Assembly (NCBI GenBank): GCA_964016885.1
Contig: OZ024741.1
Span: 168,888,001-168,952,000 of the forward strand
Origin: Eledone cirrhosa
Lineage: Eukaryota
Direction of reading: 5' to 3'
Length of the DNA: 64,000 nt
The translations under genes and the position numbers were made by a program. The first letter of the stretch is position 1, and every line of letters begins with the position of its first letter. The notes below the pieces were generated by a model. It searched no databases. It was not told the origin of the DNA and saw only the letters and a list, made by a program, of their open reading frames with translations. Below are positions 11,793 through 56,358 of the stretch, one piece after another.

Positions 11793-12003
11793 TGTTTCCG
11801 AAGAACCTGGAGATCTAGAATCAGGCAGATCCAAACAATGATCGTGTCTCGAGCTCTCTGCCGGCGAAACAATTGTAACAAACAATAAACTGAGTCCAGA
11901 TGCATCACTGATTTTTCGTTTTATATTATATCACACTCTGCTCTGTAAGAACATAGAGTGCTGAACTGGCATACCGCCTATAGAAGCATGATAGCTACCA
12001 TTA
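11793..12003 (+). ncRNA. Degenerate hammerhead + 3' tail (related to 55008-55362), ending in (CA)n
   Basis: tgttt-CCGAAGA-long stem II-GAAA-caatt-GTA-acaaaca; the tail shares gatgcatcactgatt and aactggcataccgccta with 55249-55329. Confidence 0.55.
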
Positions 12004-12063
12004 AACACACACACACACACACACACACACACACACACACACACATATATATATATATATATA

Positions 12064-12263
12064 TAGGAACCAGTAAGACCCCGACAGCTGAGCTCAAGCC
12101 GTTTCGACGGCTAATTCTGGACTGAGTCCAGAATTAGCCGTCGAAACGGCTTGAGCTCAGCTGTCGGGGACTTACTGGTTCCTATTACCCACTCTACTAC
12201 CTCAAGTATTGAGTACTTTGGTGCGTTATGGTCCACCTGGTTCCTTACCACATTTCCTTCGTT
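12064..12263 (+). mobile_element. Fold-back mini-element family A: 60-bp inverted arms centred at 12124 (inside HHR stem II) + ~80-nt tail, (TA)n both sides
   Basis: Arms 12064-12123 and 12125-12184 differ at about 1 position; each carries the HHR 3' half GAAAcggcttgagctcagctGTC. Confidence 0.85.
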
Positions 12264-12962
12264 ATATATATATATATATAGCCGTCGAAACGGGTTGAGC
12301 TCTGTCGTCGGGTTTAAACTTTTTCCTATTACCCACTCTACTACCCTAAGTATTGAGTACTCTGGTGCGTTCTGGTCCATCTGGTTCCTTACCACACCTC
12401 CTTTGTTATATATATATATATATATATATATATATATATATATATCACAGGTCCAAAATAATAGGGGAAATCAAATAAGCGGGGGATTGGACATTTGCTT
12501 AAATTCTTATAAACGTGTGTGGGGAATCGGTAATTGCATAGTGTACGTTCGTAAATATGGGGTTTCTTGTTAATCTTTTTGTCATATATAATGTTTTATT
12601 AATGTAAAATAAAATTATTATTAGATTCTCCAGTTGCTGTACCAATATGAATCACTTACAATAAAATTTCGCCGGAGATAGATTGTCAAAATGTAATATA
12701 TATATATATATATATATATATATATATATATATATATAAACAATTAAGTTAAAAATGTACATCCACATATGTATACTGAAATACTAGTATGCATATGAAT
12801 ACACACACGTATACATATGTAGATGTACCGAGTTTTTCACTGGTCACTTTACTGTGAGTGTCCAGCTATTCTGTATGTAAACACACAGACAAACCGGTTT
12901 TTAGAGTCATACTGGTTTTTGAGGAAACACCTTTCCTCTATTCTCCAGAAAGCCAGACAAGG

Positions 12963-13007
12963 AATATTGAACTTGTTTCGATGTTGTTACATCTCATCAG
13001 CAATATT
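12963..13007 (-). ncRNA. Type-I hammerhead ribozyme (inverted copy of 13402-13446)
   Basis: Minus strand: aatattg-CTGATGA-gatgt aaca acatc-GAAA-caag-TT-caatatt. Confidence 0.85.
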
Positions 13008-13401
13008 TACCTATCTTCCGGCCTCTCTAGAGAATCGTAAAAGCACATATCGTTATATGCTTTTTCTATGAAAATTAGTAGTAGTGGGCAGACTAATTTG
13101 CACTGAAAAACTCGGTACATCTACATATGTATACGTGTGTGTATTCATATGCATACTAGTATTTCAGTATACATGTGTGGATGTACATTTTTAACTTAAT
13201 TGTTTAAGCGTCAGTCATACAAAAGTGAGTTACAAACGAAACGAAATTTAATTTCGTTTCGTTATTTGTTTTTATCGTCTCCGTTGAACCGGTACGTACT
13301 CACGCTCTATGCAAATTAGTCTGCCCACTACTAATTTTCATAGAAAAAGCATATAACGATATGTGCTTTTACGATTCTCTAGAGAGGCCGGAAGATAGGT
13401 A

Positions 13402-13446
13402 AATATTGCTGATGAGATGTAACAACATCGAAACTAGTTCAATATT
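13402..13446 (+). ncRNA. Minimal type-I hammerhead ribozyme, intact core
   Basis: Stem I aatattg/caatatt, CTGATGA, stem II gatgt/acatc, GAAA, palindromic stem III actagt, GUU site (cut after 13439). Confidence 0.92.
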
Positions 13447-14522
13447 CCTTGTCTGGCTTTCTGGAGAATAGAGGAAAGGTGTTTCCTCAAAAACCAGTAT
13501 GACTCTAAAAACCGGTTTGTCTGTGTGAATAGCTGGACACTCACAGTAAAGTGACCAGTGAAAAACTCGGTACATCTACATATGTATACGTGTGTGTATT
13601 CATATGCATACTAGTATTTCAGTATACATATGTGGATGTACATTTTTAACTTAATTGTTTAAGCGTCAGTCATACAAAAGTGAGTTACAAACGAAACGAA
13701 ATTTAATTTCGTTTCGTTATTTGTTTTTATATATATATATATATATATATATATATATATATATATATATATATACTTCCAGCTCTTGAATATCCCCACT
13801 CACCGGTTTTATTTCAACACCCCCGCTTATTACATTTTGACAATCTATGTCCGGCGAAATTTTATTGTAAGTGATTCATATTGGTACAGCAACTGGAGAA
13901 TCTAATAATAATTTTATTTTACATTAATAAAACATTATATATGACAAAAAAAAAGAACAAGAAACCCCATATTTACGAACGTACACTATGCAATTACCGA
14001 TTCCCCACACACGTTTATAAGAATTTAAGCAAATGTCCAATCCCCCGCTTATTTCATTTCCCCTATTATTTTGGACCTGTAATATATATATATATATATA
14101 TATATATATATATATATATATATATATATATATATATATATATATATATATATATATATATATATATATATATATATATATATATATATATATATATATA
14201 TATATATATATATATATATATATATATATATATATATAACGAAGGAGGTGTGGTAAAGAACCAGATGGACCATAACGCACCAGAGTACTCAATACTTAGG
14301 GTAGTAGAGTGGTTAATAGGAAAAAGTTTAACCCCGACGGCAGAGCTCAACCCGTTTCGACGGCTATATATATATATATATATATATATATAAATACAAT
14401 ATCGGAGAAAGCTTTTTAGTGATACTCCGGCCAAATTCCAACTCACTCAACAAACATTAGGAAATAAGTAATTATATATATATATATATATATATATATA
14501 TATATATATATGTATATATATA

Positions 14523-53340: not shown

Positions 53341-55007
53341 GCCGGTTCTGTTGATTCAGTGATGGTGATAGCGTCGCTGATCCAGTGGTTGTTACGTTAA
53401 ACATTTTAGCATTCAACATTTCATATTTTGGTTGCCTTTGTTTTGCTATTTTTGCTGCTGCTATTGTTGTTCTTGTTGATATTAATGCTGTCTTGCTTTA
53501 TTGTAAGCTTATTTTTCTTGTTGTTGAAAACTTGTTCTACTTGTTGTTTTTTCTCCATCTATTTTAATGTTTATTCTTCAACAAGTTCTTTAATTGTCAA
53601 TCATATCAACAGCAAACACACATGTAAGTTGGCAGAAATATATTATATATGGATGTGTGCACATGTGTACTGGCATTTATATATGTGCATATATGTGCAT
53701 ATGTATTCATATATATGTATGTATGTAGTATATATATATATGTGTGTGTGTATGTGTATCATGTTATATCTATTTTCCATGCGTGCCTAGGTTATATATA
53801 TATAATCCATGCTAGCGTGAAAGATGGACGTTAAACGATGATGATGATGATGTTGATGATGATATATATATATATTTATATATATATATATATATATGTG
53901 TGTGTGTGTGTGTGTGTGTGTGTGTGTGTGTGTGTGTGTGTGTGTGTGTGTGTGTGTGTGTGTGTGTGTGTGTGTGTGTGTGTGTGTGTGTGTGTGTGTG
54001 TGTGTGTGTGTGCGTGTATATATATATATGTATATATATATATATATTTATATATATATATATATATATGTATATATATATTTATATATATATATATATA
54101 TATATATATATATGTATATATATATATATGTATATATACATATATATATATATATATATATATATATATATATATACATATATATATATATATATATATA
54201 TGTATATATATATTTATATATATATATATATATATATGTATATATATATATATGTATATATACATATATATATATATATATATATATATATATATATATA
54301 TACATATATATATATATATAAAGGGAGAGAGGGAGAAAGAAAGAAAGATAGAGAGATGGAGAGAGAGAGAGACATGTTCGTATATGTTAGGTGGCCACTT
54401 GTACTACGTCTATGTGAGTGTGTATATACATAATTATGAACAGAAGAGATTGAGTTAGTTTGTTTATTGAGCTGCTTTAGTTCAAAACATATTTTTATTT
54501 ATTGACAAACCATGCAGAAATGGTAATATATGCAGGCTTTTCAACCATTACGCATTATGCATGAATTTCCGACATTTGTCTTTTCATCATGCATTTTGCT
54601 GAAAAATCTAGTATTTTGGGAGCTCGCTCATATTTAAGTGTTTCACTTCACATGTTCTTTTTTTCTAGGCCTTCTGATATTTTCTTTGAAATCAACATTT
54701 TTAATTTAACCCTAAAGTACTACCGTGGGGCCCCGAAGTGCCCACTTGCCATCAGGCATGCTGACGACCTGGCCAGCCTGCTACTGTATATATTTATGCA
54801 TATATATACATATATACATATATACATATATACATATATACATATAAAAGTGACACAGAGGAGACTGAGGTTAGCTGGACATGCTCACCGACATCCAGAG
54901 TTGACATTGCACTCAGTACTCCTTTGGGAGCCCCTACATGGACACACTAGAAGAGGAAGACCAAGGTTAACGTATGTTGATGCCCTAAGGATATATATAT
55001 ATATATA

Positions 55008-55362
55008 TTATAAAGAACGAGGAATCAGTGATGCATCATATCACATTTATTAACATATAACATATGTTTCTCTGTCGATCAGCTCGAGGCAAGATCTGTT
55101 ACAGATCGAACCCGACTCTGCATTCAAAGGATCTTCAGAAACATATCAGGAGATTCTTGGAATGCAGAGTCGGGTTCTATCTGTAACAGATCTTGCCTCG
55201 AGCTGATCGACAGAGAAACATATGTTATATGTTAATAAATGTGATATGATGCATCACTGATTCCTCGTTCTTTATCATATTATACTCTGCTCTGCGCGAG
55301 CATATATTGCTCAACTGGCATACCGCCTACGGACGCATTTACCTGCAACCCTACAATAACTA
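55008..55362 (+). mobile_element. Fold-back mini-element (arms ~55008-55125 / ~55160-55275) + ~85-nt tail in (TA)n; HHR core on minus strand ~55053-55145
   Basis: Minus strand: atgttt-CTGAAGA-tc..long..ga-GAAA-catat-GTT-atatgt. Confidence 0.8.
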
Positions 55363-55479
55363 TATATATATATATATATAATATATATATATATATATAT
55401 ATATATATATATATATATATATATATATATATATATATATATATATATAAGATCAAAAGATGGTTAAAAGAGTTCCATG

Positions 55480-55550
55480 TATTTTATTATGCGCATTTCA
55501 AGAACAAATATCATCATGCAATAACATTTGCGTTTTCGTCAGATAAAATA
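55480..55550 (-). ncRNA. Type-I hammerhead (family C), intact core
   Basis: Reverse complement of 55697-55767. Confidence 0.88.
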
Positions 55551-55696
55551 GGGAGACATGATATGAAGGTTAAAACACACTTGTGAATAGTGCAGTTTTA
55601 AATCAACATATCATATTAAATCAACATATCATATGATATGTTGATTTAAAACTGCACTATTCACAAGTGTGTTTTAACCTTCATATCATGTCTCCC

Positions 55697-55767
55697 TATT
55701 TTATCTGACGAAAACGCAAATGTTATTGCATGATGATATTTGTTTTTGAAATGCGCATAATAAAATA
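55697..55767 (+). ncRNA. Type-I hammerhead (family C), intact core
   Basis: tattttat-CTGACGA-aaacgcaaatgttattgcatgatgatatttgttttt-GAAA-tgcgca-TA-ataaaata; 8-bp stem I, palindromic stem III. Confidence 0.9.
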
Positions 55768-56358
55768 CATGGAACTCTTTTAACCATCTTTTGATCTTAT
55801 ATATTATTTATACTCCAGTCCTACAAACTGCAGAGTGCTACTTATCCGATATCTGCATTGCTTTATTGTACTACAATAAAACTCACCTCCTATATATATA
55901 TATATATATATATATATATATATATATATATATATATATATATATATATATATATATATATATATATATATATATATATATATATATACATATAGATATA
56001 TATATATTGATTACTCAATGAAAGGAATATTTTTGATGATGAAGATATGTAATTTTTTTCGAACCTGTTCATACATTTTACATTTTACAAAAATGCCGTA
56101 ACATATATGCCGTAACAAAGTACCTTCCATTACCATATTTCTAATGAAGATTCTACCTAAGATTTTCAAATAATTTTGAAAATAATCAAGAATTTGAAGG
56201 GATATATTTAACTTTTTCCTTACGATAGAAGATTTTTCACACTTAAGACAGTTTTGTATCATAAAACCTAGGGAAGTTTCAGCTAGATTAATAACAAAAA
56301 GGTTGGAAAACTACCCGATAGTCAATTCTTAAGTGATGCATCTTCTCTCAAATTTTAA

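Follow-up and report, generated by a model that had tools for sequence, protein, structure and literature searches.

Stem motifs and fold-back families in the window

A 64,000-nucleotide stretch of the genome of the octopus Eledone cirrhosa (assembly GCA_964016885.1, contig OZ024741.1, positions 168,888,001 to 168,952,000 of the forward strand) was analyzed and is called the window in the following. It is AT-rich animal DNA that is dense in (TA)n and (CA)n microsatellites, and the whole genome has a size of 3.0 Gb. The subject of this analysis is a short pairing motif of the form ACTC...GAGTRCT, which occurs in the tails of several short fold-back families and probably represents one of two small RNA stems of Penelope-like elements (PLEs) of the Hydra type. 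An earlier note on this DNA had quoted six instances of the motif and three compensatory variants (GCTC...GAGC), and had stated that the motif is missing from the tails at 13662 and 14915. Upon re-reading of the window all six instances were found with their positions and strands, the three variants were also present, and the motif was indeed absent from both tails. The 14915 tail contains a related hairpin instead. Relaxed patterns together with a covariance model yielded a total of 16 instances or variants and this one related hairpin, including five copies and two decayed copies that had not been listed before (Table 1).

Table 1. Predicted stems and fold-back elements in the window. "New" marks stem copies absent from the earlier list.
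Feature	Position	Strand	Remarks
Family B stem ACTC-TGCTCT-gta-AGAACA-TA-GAGT-GCT	11935-11962	+	one C.A mismatch here, intact in relative L028; tail to (CA)n at 12004
Family A fold-back	12066-12185	+	inverted arm 12066-12123, tail absent; direct arm 12125-12185 follows
Family A stem (S1) ACTC-TAC(T)-loop-(A)GTA-TT-GAGT-ACT	12191-12217	+	tail to (TA)n at 12262
Family A stem, 5'-truncated solo copy	12335-12361	+	new; tail to 12406
Family A stem, solo copy	14284-14310	-	new; outer end of tail 14239
Family H fold-back	14523-14947	+	arms 14523-14718 and 14719-14914; 33-nt tail
Family H hairpin ACTT-GTGT-GTT-ACAC-CT	14918-14938	+	like inner hairpin of Neptune-1; outer pairing absent
Expanded variant GCTC...GAGC-ACC	15231-15305	+	75-nt form, closes 67-nt insert; inner TGCTA/TAGTA, bulge TC; (TA)n 81 nt downstream
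Stem ACTC-TAAGGT-cct-ACCTTA-TC-GGGT-GCT	24134-24161	-	new; outer U.G wobble, 6-bp inner helix; (TA)n 85 nt downstream
Family M variant GCTC...GAGC-TTC	33158-33194	+	weak inner helix; (TA)n 69 nt downstream
Family D stem ACTC-CAA-aac-TTG-TC-GAGT-GCT	33346-33367	-	tail to 33286
Family E stem ACTT-TGC-tct-GCA-TC-GAGT-GCT	34171-34192	-	outer U.G; tail to (CA)n at 34124
Family D stem, second copy	34536-34558	-	tail to 34478
Family G stem ACTC-G-TCC-cat-GGA-CT-GGGT-GCT	48737-48759	-	new; 13-22 nt from arm end; followed by (TATC)n repeat
Family M variant GCTC...GAGC-TAT	49075-49103	+	new; microsatellite absent within 250 nt
Family M variant GCTC-GGAA...TTCT-TT-GAGC-TAT	49908-49936	+	(TA)n 42 nt downstream
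Family A fold-back	51808-51958	-	arms about 51844-51958; stem 51808-51834 (new) decayed, GAGT to GAGC
Family F fold-back (relative of B)	55005-55360	+	arms 55005-55139 and 55146-55280
Family F stem	55284-55311	+	new; inner TGCTC/GAGCA kept, outer 3' strand decayed to TATT
Family C fold-back	55443-55890	+	arms 55443-55621 and 55626-55804; tail to (TA)n at 55890
Family C stem ACTC-CAGT-loop-ACTG-CA-GAGT-GCT	55812-55839	+	in tail of the family C fold-back
PLE-type family without motif	12737-13730	+	inverted arms; tail from about 13660 with a different 13-bp hairpin

Frequency and genomic context of the motif

In the window the pattern ACTCN{10,22}GAGTRCT has seven matches, compared to a mean of 0.37 in shuffled controls, and none of 100 shuffles reached seven. 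In addition, a blind sample of the same genome was analyzed, which consisted of 80 stretches of 10 kb each (800 kb), taken at round-number positions from many contigs irrespective of their content. It contained 27 strict motifs; 20 first-order Markov simulations had a mean of 9.75 and a maximum of 14. The sequence context is stronger evidence than the raw counts. A dinucleotide microsatellite was present within 200 nt downstream of 26 of the 27 matches, mostly at a distance of 31-72 nt, compared to 21% of random positions, and thus the motif is the mark of one kind of insertion that ends in microsatellites.

The motif had been described as starting about 4-8 nt after the end of the short arm. 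This spacing was corroborated with 29 copies of family A (the window duplicate L002 was excluded), 23 of which have a distance of 4 nt and the others of 2-10 nt. In further families the distance is 6 nt (C), 3 nt (D), 5 nt (J), 3 nt (K), 0-5 nt (N) and 5 nt (L007 family), and it is larger in family G (13 nt) and the L038 family (12 nt). As the arm borders on (TA)n, each of these values has an uncertainty of 2-4 nt.

Structure and covariation of the predicted stem

The predicted stem consists of an outer helix of 4 bp (ACUC/GAGU or GCUC/GAGC), a bulge of 1-3 nt on the 3' side, which is mostly a U followed by U, C or A, an inner helix that varies between families, and a trailing RCU. The common fold of the window families has the order ACTC, inner helix, loop, inner partner, two unpaired bases, GAGT and RCT, and the inner helices are TAC/GTA, CAGT/ACTG, CAA/TTG, TGC/GCA, TGCTC/GAGCA or TAAGGT/ACCTTA, depending on the family.

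The covariation of ACTC/GAGT with GCTC/GAGC was verified in the 800 kb. With a microsatellite 25-170 nt downstream, the combination ACTC/GAGT was found 25 times and GCTC/GAGC six times, while none of the 15 mismatched outer combinations had this context (ACTC/GAGC 0 of 12, GCTC/GAGT 0 of 3). A count made earlier, with the window and the first 400 kb, had given 22 and four cases, respectively, and one case of each mismatched combination. For the inner helix, the outer motif was the sole criterion in the choice of 12 families, each of which was represented by its commonest copy. In seven of the 12 an inner helix of at least 3 bp is present in the same register, with P values of 0.006-0.10 in shuffles made per family. 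In a seed alignment that was hand-picked by the analyst, 97.7% of the cells are paired, compared to 83.8% in shuffles and 18-55% when the partners were slid. Variants that characterize whole families are wobble pairs (ACTT/GAGT, ACTC/GGGT, GTTC/GAGC, CAG/TTG and TGC/GTA), and A-C mismatches are confined to two single decayed copies. Such a pattern is consistent with a sense strand that folds, as G-U pairs are tolerated at the family level and A-C pairs are seen solely in decayed copies.

Known RNA motifs were also considered. Rfam gave no match at any motif site, neither with the gathering threshold for the whole window nor with an E-value threshold for the regions 11000-16000, 33200-34800 and 54950-55950; matches to miRNA families in these three regions were rejected as artefacts of fold-backs and (TA)n. 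By this comparison the motif is not part of a hammerhead. The sole hammerhead matches fall into a family that does not contain the motif. They are sub-threshold matches to Hammerhead_HH9 in both arms of that family (13391-13462, plus strand, 36.5 bits; 12947-13018, minus strand, 34.6 bits; gathering score 52). By its sequence, the motif was also rejected as a kink-turn, since tandem G.A pairs are absent, as the 3' hairpin of a Helitron, because distance and ends are wrong, and as a terminator.

Autonomous elements that carry the stem

A canonical carrier of the stem was met by chance at the blind locus L106. Its type has an open reading frame (ORF) of 685-719 aa with the motifs DKT, YRDD, CxCX5C and RWK. 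Four autonomous families, named Hy-1 to Hy-4, have ORFs of 685-758 aa with DKT, YRDD and CxCX5C; Hy-2, Hy-3 and Hy-4 were found by protein search. DKT replaces DKG in Hy-1, Hy-1b, Hy-2, Hy-3 and Hy-4, the CxCX5C linkers read CSCRIKSEC, CSCRKPDEC, CNCRNRADC and CNCLNKEAC, a match to CX2-5CxxC is absent from these ORFs, and RWK is confined to Hy-1 and Hy-2. Between IVY and YVG, Hy-1 and Hy-2 have no Cys, Hy-3 has one and Hy-4 has two (C-x8-C). Pfam did not call the GIY-YIG domain and detected no domain in the Hy-1 ORF. The Hy-1-type ORF is 25% identical to the reverse transcriptase (RT) of Neptune-like PLEs (E value 6e-8), and it has 1309 unnamed homologues of 650-740 aa. The cores CUGANGA...GAAAC in the pseudo-long terminal repeats (pLTRs) are hammerhead-like as read by eye. 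The targets of the Hy copies are (TA)n, and the unit has a length of about 3.6 kb.

In the main text of Craig et al. (2021, PMC8557442) the Hydra clade of C-terminal endonuclease-containing (EN+) PLEs is characterized by DKT in place of DKG, a CxCX5C linker, RWK, a canonical hammerhead, (TA)n targets and the lack of CCHH in the GIY-YIG core. The carriers described here share DKT, CxCX5C, RWK (Hy-1 and Hy-2), a core in the pLTR that by eye resembles the canonical hammerhead, and the (TA)n targets, but their units of about 3.6 kb are longer than the "generally <3 kb" given in that text (PMC8557442). On the basis of these hallmarks they are likely Hydra-type PLEs, an assignment made from motifs, not from phylogeny. 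The earlier note had linked the motif to the Penelope RT. The carriers are indeed RT-encoding PLEs, but they probably belong to the Hydra clade, with a diverged form in Neptune-like elements (see below), and not to Penelope proper.

The order of the autonomous unit is pLTR, first stem (S1), a tail of about 65 nt, second stem (S2), about 25 nt, and ORF. In Hy-1, the pLTR with its core CUGACGA...GAAAC is followed by ..TATACATTA/AATTTT (the slash marks the copy end) and by S1, which is GCTC-TGATACTTACATA-GAGC-ACT-CTTCA. Then follow the tail, the sequence ..CAATACTTA/TACA, S2 of the form GCTC...(78 nt)...GAGC-ACT-CTTCA, and the ATG. S2 was present in all 20 fetched copies of the Hy-1-type carrier. 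Hy-2 and Hy-3 have the same twin layout upstream of the ATG, and S2 is compact in Hy-3 (GCUC-C-UUCG-G-UU-GAGC-ACU, i.e., a UUCG tetraloop closed by C-G; L182:1455-1475 and L183). In Hy-4, S1 is present upstream of the ATG and has the sequence ACTC-TGC-YAT-GTA-TT-GAGT-ACC.

Hydra-type PLEs are extremely abundant in this genome: the protein search yielded 90,736 candidates at first look, and among the 63 scored matches the majority have stop-free open frames of 713-759 aa. Hy-1 units contain an internal (TA)n after the ORF (L155:3061-3100, L154:3052-3111, L156:3108-3155, and L157, minus strand, 5161-5182), which could serve these same elements as a target for nested insertion.

Short families as derivatives of PLEs

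In the short families an inverted and a direct arm are joined head to head, the tail is confined to one side, and the targets are microsatellites. This is an insertion signature of PLEs, an architecture that is described in the main text of Craig et al. (PMC8557442). In the window, the fold-backs of families A, C, F and H have an inverted and a direct copy with a one-sided tail. Family A has about 40 near-identical copies elsewhere in the genome. Each of these copies has its own inverted arm with a variable inner truncation, indicating that the inverted arm is made at each insertion, and in none of 29 family-A fold-backs was a tail present on both arms. At least 12 families of non-coding derivatives, which lack an ORF, have retained S1. 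Family K of the blind sample is a derivative of Hy-4, and family N derives from Hy-1/2. The families had been taken to be unrelated in the earlier note, a view that had to be given up. They are derivatives of Hydra-type PLE lineages, and thus the motif was inherited and then maintained.

Positions of the copy ends

The ends of inserted copies were read from matches to the pLTRs. For Hy-1 (n = 29), 11 matches read through, 11 had the inner end and seven the outer end. The respective numbers are 11, one and two for Hy-2 (n = 15, one further match was diverged) and three, five and zero for Hy-3 (n = 8), and all five Hy-4 matches read through. All 26 ends that were read in Hy-1, Hy-2 and Hy-3 are located 2-8 nt before S1 or S2, and none elsewhere. 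The inner end is 2-8 nt upstream of S1, and such copies have no tail; the outer end is 2-7 nt upstream of S2, and the tail contains S1. Every end borders on (TA)n or (CA)n. The outer end of the tail therefore adjoins a second copy of the stem, which is missing from the inserted copies, and the view of a single stem has to be corrected. Copying from either point omits the stem that follows, and thus S2 is never found at the 3' end of an insertion. This is also why only one stem had been seen in the window.

Full-length direct copies end at the inner point (L153 and L155), and the outer point is the end of a two-unit tandem (L157). Because full-length direct copies, and not only inverted short arms, end there, the inner point fits a start site of complementary DNA (cDNA) synthesis. 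At all nine loci that have two ends on opposite strands, one end is inner and the other is outer (Neptune-1 L088, L092, L005, L029 and L035; Hy-1 L157, L160, L165 and L178; adjoining of the two arms was checked for L088, L157 and L160). A mirror-image insertion may accordingly use both sites once, which is a hint at their coupled use.

Environmental relatives

A scan of metagenome contigs with protein alignment yielded 78 loci with 40-50% protein identity. The pattern GCTC-N6-30-GAGCACT was found 119 times on the ORF strand of these loci and six times on the opposite strand. Among the 50 loci with enough upstream DNA, 41 have the motif within 330 nt upstream of the ORF, where its density is 5.95 per kb, compared to 0.38 per kb elsewhere in the locus. 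In 25 of the 50 the motif is present as two short copies, the median spacing of which is 62 nt; S2 has a median distance of 23 nt and S1 of 88 nt to the ORF. The first inner pair is formed in all 84 distinct interiors, 34 of which have at least 3 bp, compared to 2.7 expected; the bulge is UU, UC or UA. A model built from octopus copies had 39 of its 40 matches in the relatives on the ORF strand, and 99.5% of the cells are paired in the relatives' alignment, which was fitted with the model, compared to 84% in shuffles.

The proposal of a conserved RNA element was strengthened by the compensatory changes, by family-level variants that are G-U and never A-C, and by the strand bias in the relatives. 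The proposal that the element positions internal initiation was supported insofar as the distance from the copy ends to the stem downstream is short and nearly constant, and the inner point is also the end of full-length direct copies; the initiation itself is discussed below.

Neptune-like elements

The best-scoring loci of a GIY-YIG search of the genome were Neptune-like PLEs that do not have the canonical motif nearby. Their ORFs (L083-L092) contain linkers of the type KCGRSNCGTC (CX5CxxC) and LIY..C..C..YIG (CCHH), and Pfam detected RVT_1 and GIY-YIG. Among 20 pLTR matches of Neptune-1, six had the inner end, 12 an outer or near-outer end, and two read through into the ORF. The inner end, ..CTTTAT/(TA)n, precedes the hairpin ACTC-GTGT-AGG-ACAC-CT-CGGT by 5-8 nt, and the outer point follows this hairpin at a distance of 36 nt. 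Neptune-2 copies end 6 nt before the hairpin TATACAC-AATCATACACACCC-GTGTATA or about 40 nt later (L086, minus strand, 5700-5760; L087; L090). Neptune-like PLEs thus have a diverged hairpin with the same geometry as the Hydra-type stem. The loop of the Neptune-2 hairpin is AC-rich, the sole one among the stems described here, and resembles the AC-rich stem-loop of PAc, a Poseidon PLE of Anolis carolinensis.

Further features of the window

Several additional observations were made. The 13-bp hairpin of the PLE-type family that lacks the motif is located about 30 nt past the inner end. Families B (11935-12004) and E (34124-34192) end in (CA)n and not in (TA)n, despite the common stem. Many tails have a second, family-specific hairpin 20-35 nt past the first stem (55859-55880; 33300-33320, minus strand; L066:1470-1492; L062:3805-3828), e.g., TTTATTGTA-C-TACAATAAA in family C and TTGTTG...CAACAA in D-like families. 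The body of family A (12124-12170) contains the strings CTGAGTCC...GTCGAAAC, but an Rfam hammerhead is absent. Remnants of RTs of the long interspersed nuclear element (LINE) type (RVT_1 and zf-RVT), which are unrelated to the PLE families, are located at 1870-6943 (minus strand) and 44478-47024 (plus strand).

Discussion

Taken together, the results lead to the reading, to which we assign a probability of roughly 0.6, that the motif is the first of two small bulged RNA stems of Hydra-type PLEs and their non-coding derivatives and serves the RT as a handle for two start points of cDNA. Binding of the RT to the stem and initiation there are suggested by analogy to PAc, the purified protein of which uses two internal sites, located at the borders of the tail, to extend both target strands (Frangieh et al. 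2024, PMC11167929). In such a mechanism the RT-endonuclease would bind either stem on the RNA, and the stem would act like a ruler, placing the template a few nucleotides 5' of it in the active site. Priming would occur from the nicked microsatellite, perhaps with the help of UA microhomology over 1-4 nt. For mirror-image insertions, each of the two sites would serve to prime one target strand, which would result in a one-sided tail.

A broader reading is possible and is put forward tentatively. The stem of about 25 nt, (G/A)CUC-helix-UY-GAG(C/U)RCU, might be a universal cis-code of Hydra-type PLEs. A dimeric RT-endonuclease would grip both copies on a single RNA and make one cDNA per target strand, each mirror-image insertion would have exactly one tail, and any RNA that acquires the stem could be copied into the genome.

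Several observations weigh against the proposed role of the stem. The Markov control leaves just a 2.8-fold excess of the raw count in the 800-kb blind sample. Five of the 12 families deviate from the register with the 2-nt bulge, having a bulge of 1 or 3 nt, an extra 5' nucleotide or a mismatch. Minimum free energy folds recover the stem in about five of ten tails, with z-scores from +0.5 to -2.7, most of them near 0. As these are mostly non-significant, stability alone gives the stem no support, and the support for the predicted structure is comparative, not energetic. The long S2 of Hy-1 and Hy-2 (78 nt) folds poorly into the stem, and a clear second copy was not found in Hy-4. The positions of the copy ends are uncertain by 2-4 nt due to TA overlap. 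A hairpin beyond the outer end of Neptune-1 was looked for and not found, and this end as well as many inner ends lie on UA-rich patches, so that microhomology with the (TA)n target could set the ends. Autonomous partners are linked for family K (Hy-4) and family N (Hy-1/2) only, and none was identified for the window families A, B, C, D and E. Lastly, PAc starts inside its AC-rich stem-loop, whereas the ends described here are 2-8 nt upstream of a bulged stem, the loops of which are not AC-rich.

The alternative that survives best, unlikely as it is, is that the stem marks a stop of DNA synthesis and not a start. The tail-less arm would then be copied from the first cDNA, by snap-back or strand transfer, and copying would be halted at the protein-bound or folded stem. 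Both arms of the short families share the same 5' point, as such a model would have it, and the pair of one inner and one outer end at nine of nine two-ended loci is what any model with one arm copied from the other predicts. However, ORF-bearing full-length direct copies end at the inner point (inner-ended L153 and L155), and their inverted partner, where it was seen, is short, 5'-truncated and outer-ended (L160 and L157). The arms are thus not copies of each other. Furthermore, the G-U variants fit the sense RNA and not an antisense cDNA, and the extension by PAc in vitro starts at internal sites for both target strands (PMC11167929).

Slightly less probable still is a function of the stems as expression signals (5' untranslated region, promoter or translation control) or as a GIY-YIG endonuclease site on DNA, with the coincidence with the copy ends being secondary. 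The close proximity of both stems to the ORF in the relatives would agree with either role, and the endonuclease of the Drosophila virilis Penelope is reported to need tail sequence for recognition (cited in PMC11167929). Against these roles stand the ORF-less derivatives, at least 12 families of which retain S1, and the insertion into microsatellites and not into tails. The strand bias and the G-U pairs indicate RNA and not duplex DNA.

It is improbable that microhomology alone sets the ends, i.e., that the nicked (TA)n or (CA)n pairs with UA- or CA-rich patches of the RNA and the stem serves otherwise. This would be in line with ends on TA-rich patches (..TATACATTA/, ..CAATACTTA/TA, ..CTTTAT/A and ..TCTAA/TATATA), with junctions that are ambiguous by 2-4 nt, and with the missing hairpin after the outer end of Neptune-1. 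Yet UA patches are numerous in AT-rich elements, and two sites account for all 26 Hydra-type ends. In addition, start patch and stem are duplicated as one module, ATAC(A)TTA-N4-6-GCTC...GAGCACTCTTCA, and the stem is conserved with covariation in the relatives. Finally, shared ancestry only, with the motif as a neutral leftover of one 3' module, or a match by chance is very improbable: all motif-bearing families do trace to PLE lineages and some tails are similar beyond the stem (clustering merged D and J with cluster 8), but flanks and loops cannot be aligned while 11 nt are fixed, inner helices differ with compensation, the split between ACTC/GAGT and GCTC/GAGC is clean, the motif is conserved in environmental relatives at 40-50% protein identity, and chance is excluded by the window shuffles and the microsatellite context in the blind sample.

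The proposed role of the stem as an RT handle has parallels in known systems. PAc and the elements described here have in common two alternative copy ends near the ORF start that bound the tail, AT-rich targets, the use of both target strands, and a stem-loop in the start region. The starts of PAc lie 111-118 nt into the ORF (PMC11167929). In contrast, the stem described here has a fixed ACUC/GCUC...GAGYRCU frame, is present twice, is located upstream of the ORF, and is known from sequence alone. The clades also differ, PAc belonging to Penelope/Poseidon and the present carriers to the Hydra-type and Neptune-like PLEs. Because the PAc sites lie inside an AC-rich stem-loop within the ORF, the stem is a variant and not PAc's own signal.

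The RTs of LINEs recognise 3' stem-loops, which are borrowed by short interspersed nuclear elements (SINEs), as exemplified by eel UnaL2/UnaSINE1 and by the R2 3' untranslated region. Similarly, a short conserved structure would let non-coding RNAs use the enzyme of an autonomous partner. Unlike LINEs and SINEs, which begin at the RNA's 3' end, the start would be internal here, and the signal lies 3' of the start, so that it is not copied, and is present in two copies. Telomerase RNA has anchors that flank the template, namely template boundary and recognition elements. As a conceptual analogy, an RT-bound structure whose distance to the start of the template is fixed would serve as a ruler here as well, but repeat addition, as in telomerase, is absent. 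The animal non-LTR (long terminal repeat) retrozymes, reportedly described by Cervera and de la Pena in 2020, are likewise short non-coding derivatives of PLEs, some with hammerhead cores. In contrast to retrozymes, which are by definition tandem hammerhead repeats, the window families are mostly single fold-backs with one tail.

A published description of the stem was not found in searches of the main-text literature on PLEs and retrozymes. The main text of Craig et al. (PMC8557442) contains neither "hairpin" nor "stem-loop" and describes the tail only as an extension of 30-40 bp, and a term search of the text of the retrozyme preprint by Li, Clavereau and Pollet (2026) did not find "stem", "hairpin", "tail" or "initiation".

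Among eukaryotic retrotransposons, PLEs are the class about which least is understood, and telomerase has its closest relative in their RT; Craig et al. place PLE RTs as the sister group of telomerase reverse transcriptase (PMC8557442). The in vitro study of PAc left open what picks the two internal start sites, and a stem 3' of both end points is a concrete candidate for this signal, seen in four autonomous families, many non-coding families and relatives in numerous environmental samples. The one-sided tail would be accounted for by the model, as would the need for tandem copies, since the second stem goes uncopied. In practical terms, the stem would help to annotate the ends of PLEs, which are often wrong in assemblies and repeat libraries. 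The broader reading, if true, would explain the swarm of short non-coding families, and the stem would be the first defined RNA recognition signal for the telomerase-related RTs of PLEs.

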